Origin: an uncultured Dehalococcoidales bacterium
GTDB taxonomy: Bacteria; Chloroflexota; Dehalococcoidia; Dehalococcoidales; GCA-2688105
Length of the DNA stretch: 64,000 nt
Direction: 5' to 3'
Assembly (NCBI GenBank): GCA_964499445.1
Contig: CAZCLE010000001.1
Span: 29,615 to 93,614 of the forward strand
Below the pieces are notes generated by a model that ran no database searches, was not told the DNA's origin, and worked only from the letters and a program-made list of their open reading frames with translations. This document shows positions 3,209-56,364 of the stretch, one piece after another. The stretch's first letter is position 1, and each line of letters begins with the position of its first letter. Made by a program: the position numbers and the translations under genes.

Positions 3209-3285
3209 CGGGGTGTAGCGCAGCCAGGTAGCGCACCTGAATGGGGTTCAGGTGGTCGCCGGTTCAAATCCGGCCACCCCGACCA
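3209..3285 (+). tRNA. tRNA-Pro (anticodon GGG), CCA encoded
   Basis: Hand-folded cloverleaf. Acceptor stem is CGGGGTG/CACCCCG, D stem GCGC/GCGC, anticodon stem CCTGA/TCAGG. The anticodon loop A-T-GGG-G-T gives anticodon GGG with G37. T arm is GCCGG-TTCAAAT-CCGGC, followed by A73-CCA. Confidence 0.9.
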
Positions 3286-32735: not shown

Positions 32736-33014
32736 CCCCTCACCCTTTATCCCTCTCCCCTTATGAAGGGGAGAGGGAAGAGAAATTCTTAAAGGGGCTT
32801 TTTACCCCACAAAAATAAATTTTTGCGGGGACCCCGTATTCGCCCCTTTTAATCCCTTTGCTAAAAACTCTCAATAAGGGGGAGTGTAGGTAAGAGAGGG
32901 GCGAAGCCCCTCTCTAAAATCTCTTCCCAAATAGAGGTTTAAGGGGCGGAGCCCCTTCTATAAAAACTTCCCCTTCCCCTTGATAAGGGGAAGGGGATAA
33001 AGGGGATAGGGTTA
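32736..33014. repeat. Composite G-rich hairpin repeat element (MITE/REP-like) with inverted A-module ends and internal B hairpins
   Basis: Left end is CCCCTCACCCTTTATCCC + hairpin CCCTCTCCCCTT/AAGGGGAGAGGG. B hairpins are AGAGAGGGGC-GAA-GCCCCTCTCT (32893-32915) and AAGGGGC-GGA-GCCCCTT (32941-32957). Right end is hairpin CCCCTTCCCCTT/AAGGGGAAGGGG + ATAAAGGGGATAGGGTTA. An extra tail-only copy lies at 32689-32714. Confidence 0.7.
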
Positions 33015-33040
33015 CCTAATAAAAATCTAAGAGGGTGAGG

Positions 33041-34234
33041 TCAATAAACAATCTTATTAGCCCGGAAAGGAATCTTCATCGCCCCAATAGCCTTAGATAT
33101 TGCCTGATGTGCCAACAATTTCAATATCACCTCAGCATGCCAGTCAAAAGACAAATCTTCCTCTTTAAGCAAGGCCTCATCAATGCCGCTGGATTTTATT
33201 ATGTCAAATATCCGGTCAATCTGCCGGTCACTCAGACGCTCATAAAATTTCCGAGCCCGGTAGCCTCTCTTCAACTCACGCCCCAGCCTCACCTTCCACT
33301 CCCGCTCATAGTTAGCCAGACTCCTAGCCGTCAGGGCATCACTTGCCAGAGCCCGGTGCAAATTATTAGCCGCGATGTCAGCACCCAGTAGCCCGTAGTA
33401 GATACCGCCACCGGTGGTTGGCTTCACCTGCCCCGCCGCACTCCCCACCACTATCACTCTCTGCCCGTAGGTTCTAGCCAACGGCTTTAGTGGAATCCCG
33501 CCATAGCTCACCTCAGCCTCAGCCGAAACTATTTTCCCCTGAGCCAACAGGGACGACATTAACTTCCTCAGATAGTGCCCGGGATTAAGGCGCGATAACA
33601 ATCCCACCCGGGCTCTCGGCGATGAGGTCGGCACCAGCCAGGCAAAAAAGCCAGGAGCTATATCCTGACCAAAATAAACCTCAACCTCGTCCACCCCGGT
33701 GGTTTCCACCTCAGCCTGAGCTCCCATAACCAAATCGCCAACCTTGCCCAAACCCAACCCCTCAGCCAGTCTGGAGCCAAAGCCAGTGGCAATAACTACC
33801 GCTCTGGCGTCAAGGTTTAACTTCTCTCCCTGACGAGTTGCCTCAATCCTAACCCTATCCTCCCCAACCGCCACATTCCTGACCTGGCTACTTAAAACAT
33901 ATTCCACTCCCTTATCCTGAGCCCAATTGGCAATAGCCATATCAAAAGCAGCTCGGTCTACAACGCACGCCTGTGGTTCCTGCCTCCACACCCTGAGTAA
34001 CCGTCCTGAAGGTGAAAATAACCTGGCGCTATTTGCCCACTTCAAAATAACCCTGTCGTCAATACCAAAAGTGCTGACACACTCCCGACCAATAAGACCG
34101 GTACAGCAGACTTTCCCTCCCGGCCTTGTCTTCGCTTCCAGCACCACCACCCCGTATCCCATCCCCGCCAGCTTATAAGCGGTATAACTCCCGGCTGGTC
34201 CACCACCTATTACTGCCACATCATACAATTTCAC
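33041..34234 (-). CDS. Geranylgeranyl-reductase-family FAD-dependent oxidoreductase
   Basis: 397 aa. YDVAVIGGGPAGSYTAYKLA...VVVLE is the dinucleotide fold. VGSAAGQVKPTTGGGIYYG is typical of the GGR family. Confidence 0.8.
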   Translation of the reverse strand: MKLYDVAVIGGGPAGSYTAYKLAGMGYGVVVLEAKTRPGGKVCCTGLIGRECVSTFGIDDRVILKWANSARLFSPSGRLLRVWRQEPQACVVDRAAFDMAIANWAQDKGVEYVLSSQVRNVAVGEDRVRIEATRQGEKLNLDARAVVIATGFGSRLAEGLGLGKVGDLVMGAQAEVETTGVDEVEVYFGQDIAPGFFAWLVPTSSPRARVGLLSRLNPGHYLRKLMSSLLAQGKIVSAEAEVSYGGIPLKPLARTYGQRVIVVGSAAGQVKPTTGGGIYYGLLGADIAANNLHRALASDALTARSLANYEREWKVRLGRELKRGYRARKFYERLSDRQIDRIFDIIKSSGIDEALLKEEDLSFDWHAEVILKLLAHQAISKAIGAMKIPFRANKIVY

Positions 34235-36552: not shown

Positions 36553-36697
36553 TAAAAACAAAAACCAAGGGCTACGGCTCTCATTACCAGACCCTTGGTC
36601 TAGGTTACCGCCGCTTCCCTACGCTCGCATTACCGAGATCAGGTTCACAGGGTTGGCATCAAAACACCTCTCAGCCTTTGAGCACCCCTAGCGGTTA
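36553..36697 (-). promoter_or_regulatory. TPP (THI-box) riboswitch with a terminator-type expression platform upstream of thiC-thi4
   Basis: The minus strand reads CTAGGGGTGCTCAAAGGCTGAGAGGTG...ACCCTGTGAACCTGATCTCGGTAATGCGAGCGTAGGGAAGCGG. This contains the conserved GGGGUGC, CUGAGA, ACCCU.UGAACCUGAUC, GGUAAUGC and GCGUAGGGA elements. The ACCAAGGG/CCCTTGGT hairpin (36564-36599) and TTTTTGTTTTT follow. Confidence 0.85.
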
Positions 36698-36767
36698 GCT
36701 ATAAAATTCTATTTTAAACATAGCACAAACTCTCCTGATATGCAAATGTGCCTTATTAATCTAGCTA

Positions 36768-36839
36768 CCTCACCCCCTTTATCCCCCTCTCCTTCAAAGG
36801 AGAGGGGGAAGGAGTAGGAAAGAGGGGCTTCGCCTCTCT
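36768..36839 (-). repeat. G-rich hairpin repeat, A module (inverted orientation) plus a degenerate B hairpin
   Basis: CCTCACCCCCTTTATCCCC + hairpin CCCCCTCTCCTT/AAGGAGAGGGGG, then AGAGGGGCTTCGCCTCTCT. Confidence 0.7.
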
Positions 36840-36923
36840 TTGACTCTTCAATAGAATTCCCTTTTTCCATATACCTAAATTAGTTCTAGAATACTTGACA
36901 AATAAGACAAATGGAGGTTTAAG

Positions 36924-39067: not shown

Positions 39068-40582
39068 GTGCAAAAAGTAATCACCGATGACCTGGACGCT
39101 CTGCTCGACATTTTACCACCGCATATTCACCAGCCACTACGCCGACAAAAGGACATCAGCGAACTACTAGAGGTAGTCCTCGACCTGGGTCGCCCTCCTG
39201 AAGCTCGCTTTCCCCAGCGAGAAATGATTCTCGACCCCAAGGAAGTTGACGAGCCGGACATTGATTATGTCGCCTCTCGTATCAGCAGCTTCGGGGATGA
39301 CAACCGGGCGGGAATCGAGCGGACACTGCACCGCATCTCAGCCATTCGTAATCGCAAGGGGTGCATTGTTGGGCTTACCTGCCGTGTGGGCAGGGCTGTC
39401 TTCGGCACCATAAAAATTATTGAAGACCTTGTCCAATCAGGCAAAGGCATCCTGTTGCTGGGCCGTCCCGGGGTAGGCAAAACAACCATGCTCCGTGAGG
39501 TAGCCCGGGTGCTCGCCGACGACCTCAATAAACGGGTTATCATTGTTGACACCTCAAATGAAATTGCCGGTGACGGTGATATTCCCCACCCGGCTATTGG
39601 GCACGCCCGGCGAATGCAGGTAACCACCCCTACTATGCAGCACGCAGTAATGATTGAAGCCGTAGAAAACCACATGCCGGAGGTAATCGTTATCGATGAA
39701 ATCGGCACCGAGCTTGAAGCTCAAGCCGCCCGAACTATCGCTGAGCGTGGGGTGCAACTGGTCGGCACCGCCCACGGCAACACACTGGAAAACCTGATGA
39801 TGAACCCTACCCTGGCTGACCTTATTGGCGGTATCCAGACGGTAACCCTGGGCGATGAAGAGGCCAGGCGGAGGGGCACCCAGAAGTCCATACTGGAGCG
39901 CATGTCAATGCCTACCTTTAATATTGTCGTTGAAATTCAGGACTGGGACAGGGTAGCCATTCACCCTGATGTCAGCGAAGCCGTTGACGCCATCCTGCGG
40001 GGACAACCCATAGCTACTGAGATTCGCTGGCTGGATGATACCGGAGAGGTCAGAATAGAAAAGGAAATGCTAGCTACTTCTAATAAGCCTTCTAAGGACA
40101 AGCCACCGGTCAGGGAAGACAAGCACTATAAGCTTTACCTATTTGGCATAAACCGGGGGCGGGTGGAGCAGGTAGCCAGAGAGAGGCAGCTAACTCTGGA
40201 TACAGTTAACCACCTGAATGAGGCTAACCTGTTTGTAACCTCTAAGAGCTACTACCGGCGGAAGCCACAAAAGGTCAAAGATGCCGAAGCGGCTAACCTG
40301 CCCATCTACGTCCTCAAAAGTAACACCCCGCATCAAATCAGGCAGCTATTAAACACCATCCATCCCTCACCTAAAACCGACCGGTCAGACTCCTTCAAGC
40401 TTGCCCTTAATGAGGCGGAAGAAGCCGTGGAGCGGGTAAAAGGAGGGGAGGAGACAATAGAACTCAGCCCCCAGAGCGCCTATATCCGACGCCTCCAGCA
40501 CCTGATAGCGGAAAGAAATGCCCTAAGTTCCCAAAGCACGGGCAAAGACCCCAATAGACGGGTGAGGATTTATAAAGAGTAG
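39068..40582 (+). CDS. SpoIIIAA/Ycf45-like AAA ATPase with a C-terminal R3H nucleic-acid-binding domain
   Basis: 504 aa. GRPGVGKTTMLRE is Walker A and VIVIDEIGT is Walker B. The C-terminal LSPQSAYIRRLQHLIAE...STGKDPNRRVRIY matches the R3H pattern. Confidence 0.75.
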   Translation: MQKVITDDLDALLDILPPHIHQPLRRQKDISELLEVVLDLGRPPEARFPQREMILDPKEVDEPDIDYVASRISSFGDDNRAGIERTLHRISAIRNRKGCIVGLTCRVGRAVFGTIKIIEDLVQSGKGILLLGRPGVGKTTMLREVARVLADDLNKRVIIVDTSNEIAGDGDIPHPAIGHARRMQVTTPTMQHAVMIEAVENHMPEVIVIDEIGTELEAQAARTIAERGVQLVGTAHGNTLENLMMNPTLADLIGGIQTVTLGDEEARRRGTQKSILERMSMPTFNIVVEIQDWDRVAIHPDVSEAVDAILRGQPIATEIRWLDDTGEVRIEKEMLATSNKPSKDKPPVREDKHYKLYLFGINRGRVEQVARERQLTLDTVNHLNEANLFVTSKSYYRRKPQKVKDAEAANLPIYVLKSNTPHQIRQLLNTIHPSPKTDRSDSFKLALNEAEEAVERVKGGEETIELSPQSAYIRRLQHLIAERNALSSQSTGKDPNRRVRIYKE

Positions 40583-40609
40583 TGCATAGCTCAAGGAGGC
40601 TAACTGACT

Positions 40610-40900
40610 ATGCAGAAGGAAGATTGGCCTGAGTACTGGGGGCGTATAATTGGTGCGACCGTTTCCCTTGGTGCTCTATCAGCATTAGCGGGTCTTGTGT
40701 GGGGCTTGGCCGTTGGTTTCGATAAAGTCGCAGGTGCAATGTGGGGTGGCATCATTGGCGCTGGTATCGTATTTATCCTATCACTAGGAATTGGCAAGAA
40801 GGCAACTACCGGTATGATGATGATGTTTGGCGGTGTTGGGGCAATTGTGGTAGTGATAGGGCTAGTAGTATGGCTTATCCGTACATTAAAGGGGGGATAG
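40610..40900 (+). CDS. Small Gly-rich membrane protein (3 predicted TM segments)
   Basis: 96 aa. Hydrophobic stretches are IIGATVSLGALSALAGLVWGLAVGF, MWGGIIGAGIVFILSLGIG and MMMFGGVGAIVVVIGLVVWLI. No recognisable family. Confidence 0.4.
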   Translation: MQKEDWPEYWGRIIGATVSLGALSALAGLVWGLAVGFDKVAGAMWGGIIGAGIVFILSLGIGKKATTGMMMMFGGVGAIVVVIGLVVWLIRTLKGG

Positions 40901-40904
40901 TGTT

Positions 40905-41111
40905 ATGGCTAAGGAATTGAGTGAGCAGGATAAAGCTAGGTTGGTAGGGTGGTTGACTGTTTTAGAAGTTGCTTTGACTGGATTTGGTCACGAGCAGATA
41001 TATTTAGGACTAGCCACCCCTACAGTCACAAAACAAATGGATAGTATTCATAATACGCTAATGTGGATGCTGTCTGAGTTCGGGTTGGAAGGAGTAGCAA
41101 AGGGTTTGTAA
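40905..41111 (+). CDS. Hypothetical 68-aa protein
   Basis: The ORF sits 4 nt after the previous stop. No recognisable motif. Confidence 0.3.
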   Translation: MAKELSEQDKARLVGWLTVLEVALTGFGHEQIYLGLATPTVTKQMDSIHNTLMWMLSEFGLEGVAKGL

Positions 41112-41215
41112 CCGTAGGATAGTCAATTTAGAATGTTGAGAAATATAAATTAAGACCGCCGAGAATTACAATGTCATTTATGGCTTTACTCAGCACCTTT
41201 GAGGATTAACCAACT

Positions 41216-42973
41216 ATGAATAGATACAGTATTCGCTATCATTCACGAACCCGAGCAGCTTTAGCAAGGAGAGCCGAACAACAAATACCCCCTCTACCCG
41301 CATGGATTTTTAATTATCCTAACATTCCGAAATATGAACTAACTATGGCACTGAACGACTACGTTAAGAGAATTGACAACATCAACTTGCATACCGGTCT
41401 AAATATCATCGCTGATATAAGAGCAGATTCAGAAGAAGAGGCTTTAGAGATTTCAAAAAATCACGCGGAGGCACTTCTAAATATCATCAGTTTTTCCTCC
41501 CTAACTTATTGCGACCCAGCAACATTGGTTAGCATAATCAATATTGTGGATGATAAGGAAGGCTTCCCTCTGAGCTATTATGTATACCCATTGAAGGAAC
41601 AGGAAATCATCAGCTCCATAAACAAAATAGACGAATCCACATTCCGTACAATATTCGAGGCTTACGATAGAAGCTCTTATCAACCAAGAACCCTAAGAGC
41701 ATTAACATGGTTAAGAAAAGGAATTGGCGAAGATAACTTCGTGGACCAATTCACCTCCTACTGGATTGGATTGGAAGTTATCAAGCACATTCTGTCACCC
41801 GAAAAGACGAATACAGAAGCAGAATGGCAAAAAGTGGGAGAAATCTTCACAGATACATTACACTTTAAAGATTTTAAGAAAATTAGGCATGGCGGAAGGG
41901 TAGGATTATTACACGGCTCCCATGAGCTAAGCAACGAATTTGTAAGAGAAATAGGGAGCTATTTAGAACCAATAAGAAAAACATTAATCTTTTGCATAGG
42001 AAGTGTTTTAGGGTTGGAAGATAATATCACGACAACTATTATGAGCAGAACTCCTCGAAGAATTGAACAATCCCCTTGGTCGATCATGAAAGGCAATCTC
42101 AAAAATTTACCCAGAGATTTTGGAGAACTAATTAAGAACTACCCAAAGATTGATGCCGAGATAATAAACAAGCAATTCTCGATAAATGAAGATGGAAGCT
42201 TATCAATAAGATTTAAGGTAACCCATCACTTTCGTGGGTCAAGTGCCATCAAGTGGGAATTAAGGGAAATAGAACAATGGGGTAAAAAAGATGCCGGTAT
42301 CCAAGGATTTACGTTAGATGAAGCAAATATAAACAAAGGAAATAAGTTGCCCCTATTTATCACCTTTGAGGGTGGGGAGGGGTGCGGCAAGAGCGTCCAG
42401 GCCAAGGCACTATACCGGAGGCTGTCAAAATTAGCTATTCCGGCACTCCTGACCCATGAACCCGGGGGAACATCTCTGGGTAAGAGACTCGCTCGCTGCC
42501 TGAAGTGGGCGCAAAATACAGATATGTCACCGCTGACCGAGCTACTGCTGTTTAATGCTTCCCGCACCCAGCTAATAGACGAGGTCATCCATCCTAATCT
42601 AGCCGAGGGGAAAATCGTTATCTGCGACCGCTATGCCGACTCCACCACTGCCTACCAGGGCTACGGGCGAGGACTGGACTCAGAAATGGTCGCCGCTATC
42701 AATAACGCAGCCACTCGGGGACTAAAGCCCAATCTGACCGTGCTACTGGATATACCAGCCGAGGCTGGACTGGCCCGTAAAAGCACCAAAAAGCAAGACC
42801 GCTTTGAGCAGGAGGAGGTAGCCTTCCACCAGAGGGTGCGACAGGGCTACCTCAAGCTGGCAGCCAGTGACCCGGAGCGCTGGCTGGTAATTGATGCCAG
42901 CAAAAATAAAGAGGAAATAGCCCAGATTATCTGGCAAAGAGTAAGACAACTGCTGCCAAGTCGAGGAGGCTGA
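41216..42973 (+). CDS. Continuous 585-codon ORF: an unknown AT-rich 377-codon N-terminal part reads in frame into thymidylate kinase
   Basis: There is no stop between 41216 and 42973. Residues 1-377 have no family I can name (a possible Rx4H, RVGLLH). From LPLFITFEGGEGCGKS onward it is canonical Tmk. A sharp change from AT-rich to GC-normal composition occurs at about 42340. Confidence 0.5.
   Translation: MNRYSIRYHSRTRAALARRAEQQIPPLPAWIFNYPNIPKYELTMALNDYVKRIDNINLHTGLNIIADIRADSEEEALEISKNHAEALLNIISFSSLTYCDPATLVSIINIVDDKEGFPLSYYVYPLKEQEIISSINKIDESTFRTIFEAYDRSSYQPRTLRALTWLRKGIGEDNFVDQFTSYWIGLEVIKHILSPEKTNTEAEWQKVGEIFTDTLHFKDFKKIRHGGRVGLLHGSHELSNEFVREIGSYLEPIRKTLIFCIGSVLGLEDNITTTIMSRTPRRIEQSPWSIMKGNLKNLPRDFGELIKNYPKIDAEIINKQFSINEDGSLSIRFKVTHHFRGSSAIKWELREIEQWGKKDAGIQGFTLDEANINKGNKLPLFITFEGGEGCGKSVQAKALYRRLSKLAIPALLTHEPGGTSLGKRLARCLKWAQNTDMSPLTELLLFNASRTQLIDEVIHPNLAEGKIVICDRYADSTTAYQGYGRGLDSEMVAAINNAATRGLKPNLTVLLDIPAEAGLARKSTKKQDRFEQEEVAFHQRVRQGYLKLAASDPERWLVIDASKNKEEIAQIIWQRVRQLLPSRGG
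42347..42973 (+). CDS. tmk: Thymidylate (dTMP) kinase core, with a possible independent TTG start
   Basis: The in-frame TTG at 42347 is preceded by AAAGGA. The 208-aa product (M)PLFITFEGGEGCGKS...THEPGGT...ICDRYADST is normal Tmk length, with a P-loop and DRY motif. Confidence 0.65.
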   Translation: MPLFITFEGGEGCGKSVQAKALYRRLSKLAIPALLTHEPGGTSLGKRLARCLKWAQNTDMSPLTELLLFNASRTQLIDEVIHPNLAEGKIVICDRYADSTTAYQGYGRGLDSEMVAAINNAATRGLKPNLTVLLDIPAEAGLARKSTKKQDRFEQEEVAFHQRVRQGYLKLAASDPERWLVIDASKNKEEIAQIIWQRVRQLLPSRGG

Positions 42974-42978
42974 GTTAT

Positions 42979-44022
42979 ATGCCTCAAAAACGGGTTGCCG
43001 TAGCTATGAGTGGGGGAGTGGACTCATCACTGGCCGCCGCCCTGCTGAAAAAAGCTGGCTATGAGGTCAGTGGCGTTCACCTGAAGCTATACTCTGGTGG
43101 CAACTCAGCTCAGGTCGCCCCAGACTTAGAGCGCACTTGCCAAATCCTAAATATCCCCCTTGAGCAGCTTAACCTTGAGACGGAATTTAAGCGCCTGGTT
43201 ATCGACTACTTCTGCCGAGAATACAACCTGGGGCGCACGCCAAACCCGTGCACTATTTGCAACCAGCATATCAAATTTGGACTTCTCCTCAACAGGGTGC
43301 GGGAAATGGGGGCAGACTATTTAGCCACCGGTCATTATGCCCGAATTGAATGCCTGCCGGATGGCTATCGCCTGCTGAAAGCCATCGACCTGACTAAAGA
43401 CCAGTCCTATTTCCTCTATACTCTGGGGCAAAGGCAGCTTCAATACCTACTGCTGCCTCTAGGTAACCTCCACAAAGCGGAGGTAAGGAGGCTAGCCACC
43501 GAACTGGGCTTACCCACCGGCAGCCGACGTGATAGCCAGGATGTTTGCTTCATCCCTGATAACGACTATCGGTCATTTATCGCTCAGCATATTCCTCTCC
43601 AACCGGGGGGCATCGTTGATACCGAGGGCAAGGTTCTAGGCAGACACGATGGTCTAGCCCAATATACGGTGGGGCAAAGGCAAGGCTTGGGGCTTACCTC
43701 GAATAAACGTCTATATGTGCTCAAGCTGGATACCACTGGCAATAGATTAGTAGTCGGCACTGAAGACCAGCTTCTAAGTAATGTCCTCTCCGCCAATAAG
43801 CTAAGCTGGGTATCAGGAGAAGCCCCCCCAGAGCCGACTAACGTAACCGCTAAAGTCCGATACAAGTCGCCTGAGGCGGTGGCTAAACTCAACCTTAATG
43901 ATGAGATGGCAAGGGTTCAGTTTCACCAGCCTCAGCGGGCGATTGCCCCCGGACAAGCCGTAGTATTCTATCAGGGTGACGCAGTTCTCGGCGGGGGAAT
44001 AATAGAAGACAGGGTAGATTGA
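42979..44022 (+). CDS. mnmA: tRNA 2-thiouridine(34) synthase MnmA
   Basis: 347 aa. VAVAMSGGVDSS is the PP-loop. NPC..CN and KDQSYFL motifs are present. Confidence 0.9.
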   Translation: MPQKRVAVAMSGGVDSSLAAALLKKAGYEVSGVHLKLYSGGNSAQVAPDLERTCQILNIPLEQLNLETEFKRLVIDYFCREYNLGRTPNPCTICNQHIKFGLLLNRVREMGADYLATGHYARIECLPDGYRLLKAIDLTKDQSYFLYTLGQRQLQYLLLPLGNLHKAEVRRLATELGLPTGSRRDSQDVCFIPDNDYRSFIAQHIPLQPGGIVDTEGKVLGRHDGLAQYTVGQRQGLGLTSNKRLYVLKLDTTGNRLVVGTEDQLLSNVLSANKLSWVSGEAPPEPTNVTAKVRYKSPEAVAKLNLNDEMARVQFHQPQRAIAPGQAVVFYQGDAVLGGGIIEDRVD

Positions 44023-44783: not shown

Positions 44784-44810
44784 AGTCGTTTATGAAAGAG
44801 ATTTTTTATT

Positions 44811-44940
44811 AACCTCACCCCCTTAATCCCCCTCTCCTTCTCAAGGAGAGGGGGAAGAGACTTTAGAGAGGGGCGGAGCCCCTCTCTTACCTACACTCCC
44901 CCCTTCCCTTATTAAGGGAAGGGGGTCAGGGGGATAGGTT
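44811..44940. repeat. Complete 130-bp G-rich hairpin element (A-inverted, B, A)
   Basis: AACCTCACCCCCTTAATCCCC + CCCCCTCTCCTT/AAGGAGAGGGGG, then AGAGAGGGGC-GGA-GCCCCTCTCT (44865-44887), then CCCCCTTCCCTT-att-AAGGGAAGGGGG + TCAGGGGGATAGGTT. The termini are inverted repeats of each other. Confidence 0.75.
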
Positions 44941-56197: not shown

Positions 56198-56225
56198 GGA
56201 TAAAAGGTCTCTTGAAGGGGTGTCT

Positions 56226-56301
56226 AAGAGGGGCGAAGCCCCTCTTTTTAATATTCCTCCCCCTCTCCTTCAAAGGAGAGGGGGACACAGGGGGTGAGGT
56301 A
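56226..56301 (+). repeat. G-rich hairpin repeat (B + A module variant)
   Basis: AAGAGGGGC-GAA-GCCCCTCTT, then CCCCCTCTCCTT/AAGGAGAGGGGG + ACACAGGGGGTGAGGTA. Confidence 0.7.
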
Positions 56302-56364
56302 GATAAAAATCCCCCTTATTTTTTTTGACAGGACTTGCCCTACCTTATTTCTCCCCCTTTACTT

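Follow-up and report, generated by a model that had tools for sequence, protein, structure and literature searches.

Why does the gene of a conserved nucleotide kinase continue, in frame and without a stop, a gene of markedly different base composition? The question is raised by a 64,000-nt stretch of contig CAZCLE010000001.1 (positions 29,615 to 93,614, assembly GCA_964499445.1) from an uncultured Dehalococcoidales bacterium, hereafter the window, in which a single open reading frame (ORF) of 585 codons passes from an AT-rich part of 377 codons into a full-length thymidylate kinase (Tmk). The initial annotation had offered two readings, namely that foreign DNA had landed precisely at the 5' end of tmk, or that a genuine fusion couples an unknown domain to a dTMP kinase. 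We consider a third course of events fairly probable: an accessory gene residing in a cargo hotspot, which would encode a HEPN protein similar to ApeA, became joined to tmk when a single lineage lost 33 nt, as a tolerated accident after which Tmk is still supplied. ApeA, a single-protein abortive-infection (Abi) system, cuts tRNAs in their anticodon loops upon activation by 5'-phosphorylated deoxydinucleotides. Contigs and loci used for comparison are given L numbers, and proteins P numbers.

The uninterrupted continuation of the ORF into Tmk, as initially described, was borne out. The Tmk part matches the Pfam family Thymidylate_kin (PF02223) over aa 384-570 (E=5e-52, profile positions 1-183 of 185), reaches 176 bits with the dTMP kinase equivalog TIGR00041 (cutoff 83), and shows a P-loop (FITFEGGEGCGKS) as well as a DRY motif in its translation, i.e., the C-terminal ~206 residues of the 585-aa ORF form a complete conserved thymidylate kinase. 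From ~0.53, the GC content drops to 0.36-0.40 between roughly 40900 and 42340, and within tmk it is 0.55 again (per gene: 0.38 in the upstream part, 0.55 in tmk and 0.54 in the R3H-ATPase gene that flanks the interval on the left). The 377-codon frame is coding, as the remaining five frames of the same 1131 nt carry 15-38 stops, and the ratio of nonsynonymous to synonymous substitution rates (dN/dS) was 0.19-0.30 for the upstream part in comparison with its homologues and 0.17 for the Tmk part in comparison with L132. Both parts of the fused ORF are under purifying selection. No second tmk was found within the 64-kb window.

The upstream part was encountered almost everywhere as a gene of its own. 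A search with residues 1-377 retrieved 83 homologous clusters (90% identity), 82 of which are stand-alone proteins of 253-451 aa, mostly 360-400, without Tmk or any known domain, while Tmk is attached in a single cluster, the one of this organism itself. The profile search of the full library returned 440 cluster representatives, nearly all about 360-400 aa long, and among the best 150 of them none had Tmk-sized extra length, save two unrelated 640-aa proteins. The C-terminal extensions of P0117 and P0127 were considered as recurrent fusions and ruled out, having no Pfam domain and having lost the arginine/histidine pair typical of the family (KEQLFNG). Divergent Dehalococcoidales contigs (44-69% identity) keep the order pdxS-pdxT-R3H-ATPase-[gene]-tmk-(mnmA)-rnhB-UPF0102-thiD/E, with the gene ending in its own stop. 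Of 35 further loci from a metagenome scan, about 17 have the gene in the slot between the R3H-ATPase gene and tmk (R3H-ATPase|tmk slot), all with a stop and none fused. In total, at least 20 related Dehalococcoidales contigs hold the gene in this slot (L002-L008, L014 and 17 metagenome loci), each with its own stop. In the slot loci, 2-108 nt (718 nt in one) separate this stop from the ATG of tmk, whose Shine-Dalgarno (SD) sequence often lies within the last codons of the upstream gene. Judged by these homologues, the AT-rich part is an established stand-alone gene family, not freshly landed DNA. A fresh foreign insertion at tmk is ruled out by the conserved occupancy of the slot with stop and spacer in many relatives, the join being a later event, and the genuine two-domain fusion finds no support in the comparison either, since none of the 82 other clusters, the about 440 cluster representatives or the 17 slot loci was fused to Tmk.

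The event itself can be read from the closest homologue, L130 (77% protein identity), in which the upstream gene ends with ...AAG TTG TCT TAG, followed by a 24-nt spacer (with AAGAAGG) and by ATG ACG CTA TTT..., whereas the window reads ...AAG TTG CCC CTA TTT... at the same point. In comparison with L130, a net 33 nt are gone, comprising the stop, the SD-bearing 24-nt spacer and tmk codons 1-2 (alignments A3 and A5, junction table). L132, which is 92% identical downstream, has an ordinary tmk start (GAGG...ATG GCT CTA TTT) and aligns with the window only from 42353 on. With 16 further loci included, the window is again the one that lacks the ATG of tmk, its codon 2 and the SD-bearing spacer. 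At the protein level, homologues terminate with '...KKLS*' or '...KKLP*', while the window has '...NKLP' there, followed by 'LFITFEGGEGCGKS' in the alignment; the junction-spanning stretch of the 585-aa product is ...NKGNKLPLFITFEGG. As far as these alignments tell, the in-frame join was made by a net 33-nt deletion that is later than the arrival of the gene in the slot (Table 1).

Table 1. Position of the fused frame, its parts and its neighbors in the window (aa, amino acids)
Feature	Position	Strand	Remarks
Fused reading frame	41216..42973	+	585 codons; protein collection entry P0231
ApeA-like HEPN gene (putative assignment), codons 1-379 of the fused ORF, native stop missing	41216..42352	+	
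Predicted HEPN four-helix core, aa 156-264	41681..42007	+	Helix 1 RALTWLRKG, helix 2 YWIGLE (E187), insert, helix 3, helix 4
Rx4H motif R228 V G L L H233, putative RNase catalytic residues	41897..41914	+	
SD-like AAAGGA (42335-42340), 6-nt spacer and in-frame TTG (42347-42349), candidate internal start of a 208-aa Tmk	42335..42349	+	
Deletion scar, last codon of the upstream gene (CCC, Pro) / tmk codon 3 (CTA)	42352..42353	+	Comparison with L130 and L132
tmk (dTMP kinase), codon 3 to stop, catalytic domain intact	42353..42973	+	PF02223, TIGR00041
R3H-domain AAA ATPase gene, conserved left flank	39068..40582	+	Pfam PTPase/R3H/Spore_III_AA
Strain-variable AT-rich cargo segment	40584..42352	+	Homology break in 92-93% identical relatives
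96-aa Gly-rich small membrane protein gene (three membrane segments), separate cargo module	40610..40900	+	
68-aa ORF, near-orphan, coding status uncertain	40905..41111	+	

A missing stop could also be produced by assembly or sequencing, for example by the collapse of a low-coverage AT-rich junction, with two separate genes in reality. Contigs of metagenome-assembled genomes do break often at this slot: L015 ends there, L132 starts 47 nt before tmk, and at least 10 species-representative contigs stop less than 1 kb past the R3H-ATPase gene (L023, L026-L029, L036, L067, L070, L085, L088). Moreover, the records with the junction may share the same reads. A clean in-frame loss of 33 nt with perfect flanks is, however, an untypical assembler error. 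The window sequence has no ambiguity at the junction, which is also present in L001 (JGI 3300013086; 100% identity over window 41055-43033) and in contigs 15.8 and 105 kb long that differ in gene calls and sources (the 585-aa and 542-aa calls come from 2 contigs each). We regard an artefact as highly improbable.

If the junction is real, tmk has lost its own start and SD, and its expression therefore depends on the sequence of the upstream gene. The initial annotation had pointed to an in-frame TTG at 42347 behind AAAGGA as a possible start, and this suggestion held up. The TTG is the sole in-frame start codon near the N-terminus of Tmk, the anti-SD duplex in front of it (-5.8 kcal/mol) is comparable to those at native tmk starts, for which eight relatives gave values from -3.9 to -7.8 kcal/mol, and the product initiated there (MPLFITF...) would have the same length as the native one (MSLFITF...). 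Such an internal start is plausible by its sequence. Its origin is accidental, as AAAGGA and TTG come from the N-K-G-N-K-L codons of the upstream gene; the TTG, a Leu codon, is the penultimate codon of that gene. That it belongs to the upstream gene follows from L130, in which AAG-TTG likewise precedes the final codon and the stop, and from the homology to L132 that starts only at 42353; the idea of an old tmk ATG mutated to TTG was rejected on the same ground. Translation from the upstream start would yield a Tmk with a large N-terminal extension. In a structure model of the upstream protein, its last ~20 residues have a predicted local distance difference test score (pLDDT) of 43-59, and their length varies across the family; this low-confidence tail could act as a linker to Tmk. 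N-terminally tagged Tmk enzymes are commonly active, which makes it plausible that the fusion is tolerated.

The same facts could be taken as signs of adaptation, with the Tmk domain serving the HEPN protein (as a nucleotide sensor, or by tying the toxin dosage to dTTP synthesis) or with the cell addicted to a defence gene. Neither half is disrupted and purifying selection acts on both, the expression of tmk without its own start and SD is now tied to the upstream gene, the junction occurs on several contigs, and a domain that binds deoxynucleoside monophosphates is thematically close to the deoxydinucleotide activators of ApeA. Yet the measured purifying selection is mostly older than the fusion, one small deletion accounts for the join, and the join is confined to a single lineage in a comparison that took in 83 clusters, 440 cluster representatives and no fewer than 20 slot loci. 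In addition, five lineages (L014, L099, L102, L106, L110) have the arrangement 'AAAGGA/AAGGGA TAG nnn ATG', in which the upstream gene is in frame with tmk and the SD of tmk lies within its last Lys-Gly codons; here fusion is one substitution away, and none of the five is fused. An adaptive fusion thus appears very unlikely to us. Similarly little probability is given to the more specific idea of functional coupling, according to which the deoxynucleotide state tunes the activation of the RNase, or tmk translated only together with the toxin makes the defence gene unloseable; were it true, the locus would be a natural case of addiction by gene fusion, or a nucleotide-sensing HEPN architecture. 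Most probably the fusion is a lineage-specific one-off and not a designed two-domain enzyme, judging from its distribution.

What the upstream gene encodes was not apparent from direct scans of the 377-aa part, which gave no usable match in Pfam, PADLOC, NCBIfam or PHROGs (a match to SPOUT_MTase at E=0.0075 was judged to be due to chance). AlphaFold2, run on the family alignment, produced a model with a pLDDT of 84 and a predicted template modeling score (pTM) of 0.82, consisting of a beta/alpha, beta-rich N-terminal part (1-121), a helical bundle (140-276) and a C-terminal beta sheet (288-373). The residues that are invariant in the alignment of the close family (A2, 83 sequences), i.e., W165, R167, F179, W183, E187, W204, R228 and H233, are all found in the bundle of the model. 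R228 and H233 are invariant in 83/83 sequences of A2 and conserved to 90% or more among 61 distant members. As a consensus the family has RNGLLHG, against RVGLLHG in the window and RAGLLHG in P0002. HEPN domains have been defined as four-helix bundles with a polar residue after the R, an acidic residue in helix 2 and inserts between helices 2 and 3 (PMC3710099). The order of elements in the model fits this definition, since helix 3 (220-232) carries R228, H233 opens the following loop and E187 lies in helix 2. Exactly between helices 2 and 3, distant members hold a CxxC..CxxC zinc-ribbon or an insert of ~70 aa (P0081, P0083 and most of A4, the profile of the 61 distant members).

The distant members also provided the connection to a characterized protein. 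A2 and A4 are homologous (hhalign E=1.5e-67), and the only PDB sequences matched significantly by A4 were ApeA proteins (Ec4ApeA 3.3e-6, Ec3ApeA 1.6e-4, Ec2ApeA 5e-4; range to 1.6e-3). The link reached significance only with A4; for A2, ApeA was the sole PDB match, at E=1.4. The A4/ApeA matches comprise two colinear segments (in the four alignments listed), namely the helix-1/2 signature and 'lRNgllHG' against 'RTRNLIVHTG', which places R228/H233 on R502-N-L-I-V-H507 of Ec2ApeA. R502 is the catalytic residue mutated in a cryo-electron microscopy study (bioRxiv 10.64898/2026.01.26.701840). The initial guess of a HEPN-like Rx4H in RVGLLH was therefore a good one, as it coincides with the invariant R228/H233 aligned with the catalytic RNxxxH of ApeA. 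Further matches below threshold were consistently to HEPN-type models (HepT-like, Cthe_2314, HEPN_Apea, RiboL-PSP, MAE_28990, CARF_HEPN, Csx1/Csm6, RTasHEPN), and MauJ (PF17419) was the most frequent Pfam match of distant members (15/61, best E=1.9e-7). The Pfam model HEPN_Apea matched 3/61 distant members, at best with E=0.0071, and no close member. By profile comparison, the family and the ApeA HEPN domain are distantly related. We label it ApeA-like, and not a curated ApeA family member, because its scores stay below the model thresholds and its domain architecture differs.

The composition and neighborhoods of the gene bear on its role. It is AT-rich in every host, with a GC content of 0.29-0.44 and a GC content at third codon positions (GC3) of 0.25-0.43 against 0.45-0.79 in hosts and flanks; examples are window 41216-42346, L002 8001-9182, L005 8001-9116 and L117 1986-3167. 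It evolves faster than its flanks, yet its protein identity tracks theirs (r=0.62-0.76). In several genome pairs the synonymous rate (dS) of the gene was below that of the adjacent tmk (L007-L014: 0.54 vs 1.74). Either the synonymous sites are constrained toward A/T, or the gene has been recently exchanged. A second recurrent site of the family is the aroE|aroC junction (L012 6001-7134, L013 3902-5035, L113 4001-5119), with gaps of 25-30 nt in L012/L013 and neighbors confirmed by Pfam in L113. Distant members have surroundings that point toward defence: they are found beside restriction-modification (RM) enzymes of the MmeI/Eco57I type (L009/10, L128), OLD ATPase-TOPRIM, PIN, toxin-antitoxin pairs and Schlafen AlbA_2 (L121, L128), or, as in L011, within an integrase/excisionase region.

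These data can be read in favor of a lineage-specific housekeeping factor for RNA processing or RNA binding, which would use the HEPN core as Las1 or MtlR-type proteins do. The gene is co-oriented with its neighbors at distances typical of translational coupling in both R3H|tmk and aroE|aroC (L012/13, L113), its identity follows that of the flanks, the R3H domain encoded next to it binds nucleic acid, and an antitoxin or partner gene is absent. On the other hand, the gene is missing from every species-representative genome in which the slot is assembled, it is AT-rich against its hosts and fast-evolving against its flanks, and its genomic settings are of at least four unrelated kinds, RM/OLD/PIN/Schlafen islands and the integrase region among them. 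Its nearest characterized relative, moreover, is an Abi protein. A housekeeping factor seems unlikely to us, although less so than the alternatives above.

In the explanation that we prefer, the interval would be accessory cargo in a recombination-prone R3H-ATPase|tmk slot, with a largest gene that encodes a ~370-aa protein whose central four-helix domain is probably distantly homologous to HEPN_ApeA. By analogy with ApeA, this protein would be a self-inhibited, metal-independent RNase, which upon phage infection would become active, cut tRNA or other RNA via R228/H233 and stop the infected cell. In the present lineage, the net 33-nt deletion, the step documented by comparison, would have joined both genes in frame. 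Ribosomes starting at ATG 41216 would then synthesize a 585-aa HEPN-Tmk, some might start from the fortuitous TTG 42347 behind AAAGGA and produce the 208-aa Tmk, and one or both products would represent the supply of the essential kinase.

Several observations weigh against this explanation. The RNase activity and the defence role of the family are putative, by analogy with ApeA, and the window protein has V and not a polar residue right after R228. Every Pfam or PADLOC match to HEPN models was below curated cutoffs, and the PADLOC model of ApeA matched neither the window protein nor any of the 61 distant members. Close members are embedded in housekeeping operons and have for the most part been inherited together with their flanks, a pattern that is unusual among mobile defence genes and would also suit a housekeeping role. 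The SD score of TTG 42347 is matched by 14% of internal codon positions, making this signal weak evidence of initiation. Finally, the assemblies with the junction may not be independent samples.

The slot itself was surveyed in 80 species-representative Dehalococcoidales loci, retrieved via the R3H-ATPase protein, which has 72-95% identity across these genomes. Most of them have a gap of 10-60 nt from the R3H-ATPase gene to tmk, and about 20 hold 0.3-1.9 kb of other cargo, co-oriented in every case, such as AT-rich small membrane proteins, tetratricopeptide repeat proteins, a short-chain dehydrogenase/reductase, a GIY-YIG protein and a 394-aa AT-rich protein. The latter (L018 7521-8705) has no Pfam match and lies in a slot with a GC content of 0.36 vs 0.55 upstream. 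The ApeA-like gene was present in none of the species-representative genomes with both flanking genes on one contig (80 loci retrieved); since assemblies tend to break at the slot, these genomes probably under-report its contents. In relatives of 92-93% identity, homology ends at 40583 (L015) and is back at 42353 (L132), which delimits the variable segment given in Table 1 and agrees with the AT-rich interval between housekeeping genes that the initial annotation had outlined. Gene content compared in this way marks the slot as a recombinase-free cargo hotspot within a co-directional run of housekeeping genes of Dehalococcoidales.

The two small genes noted initially, for a Gly-rich protein with three membrane segments and for a 68-aa product, are indeed present in the segment. 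The 96-aa membrane protein has 35 homologous clusters (50-91% identity) and a strong SD (-11.2 kcal/mol), and in L133 an 87% homologue occupies this slot, from which the HEPN gene is absent. The 68-aa ORF starts 4 nt past the stop of the membrane protein gene (SD -11.3 kcal/mol) and has one homologue outside this organism (82% identity; 5.8 billion clusters searched) and no family match in Pfam, PADLOC, NCBIfam or PHROGs; such an ORF is either non-coding or a gene of very recent origin. A promoter and terminator scan of the interval gave nothing above shuffled background, and no RNA family of Rfam matched it. The only Rfam matches of the window at gathering score were a thiamine pyrophosphate (TPP) riboswitch (36599-36699, minus strand, 72 bits) and a tRNA (3209-3282, plus strand). 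In addition, a dispersed element of ~90 nt, resembling repetitive extragenic palindromes (REP) or miniature inverted-repeat transposable elements (MITE), consists of two GC-rich hairpins (AAGAGGGGCGAAGCCCCTCTT and CCCCCTCTCCTT..AAGGAGAGGGGG). Its copies are intergenic (window 32920-33060, 36760-36850, 44795-44890, 56210-56310; L015 7513-7645; L103 1830-1937), and those of L015 and L103 fill, respectively, the edge of the slot and the spacer ahead of tmk.

Several consequences arise from this reading. The 585-aa combination of unknown domain and Tmk would be a lineage-specific deletion product and no new enzyme class, which removes a false lead. A family with about 440 cluster representatives, so far unannotated and without a Pfam, PADLOC or NCBIfam hit, can be placed, by its profile, in an ApeA-like branch of HEPN RNases with putative catalytic residues named, and a small recombinase-free hotspot at which assemblies are prone to break is documented in a housekeeping run of Dehalococcoidales. 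The fused allele may serve as a natural experiment, in which an essential gene has neither its own start nor its ribosome-binding site and depends for translation on a probable toxin gene. The low GC3 despite co-inheritance with the flanks is a puzzle of possible interest for studies of amelioration and of defence-gene turnover.

Compared with known systems, the Tmk of the window is like the canonical bacterial enzyme (TIGR00041) in its domain and differs by the deleted start, codon 2 and ribosome-binding site. The upstream protein resembles several HEPN groups to different extents. MauJ (PF17419) matches the region from helix 1 to helix 3 (consensus aa 159-251, profile positions 1-84), while the window protein and its close relatives fall below its cutoff. 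Minimal HEPN toxins (HepT/DUF86; PaREP1 HEPN-T, PDB 2q00, listed as HEPN-T in PMC3710099) have a four-helix bundle with Rx4H at the boundary of helix 3 and loop, as is predicted for the family. The family consensus aligns to positions 73-105 of the HepT-like profile, the motif region, and 2q00 is the best natural compact-bundle match in Foldseek (TM 0.40-0.46), both below significance. HepT-type toxins differ in having an MNT antitoxin partner, absent here, and in lacking the extra N- and C-terminal domains of the family.

ApeA (Ec1-Ec4ApeA, PDB 9hxm/9hxj/9hxb) provides the only significant relatives of solved structure. Both ApeA and the family have the helix-1/2 signature R..A..w.RkGl....d.F.aYW..LE and the RNxxxHxG that is catalytic in ApeA, and both are encoded by a single gene without an antitoxin. 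They differ in size (about 370 aa in the family vs about 590-620 aa in ApeA) and in architecture, as the N- and C-terminal parts of the family are predicted to be beta-rich around a compact bundle, whereas ApeA, which forms doughnut oligomers, has helical N-terminal and Mid domains and a split HEPN (bioRxiv 10.64898/2026.01.26.701840). Unlike ApeA, close family members are located within housekeeping operons, while distant members share with ApeA a place next to RM enzymes (PMC3710099).

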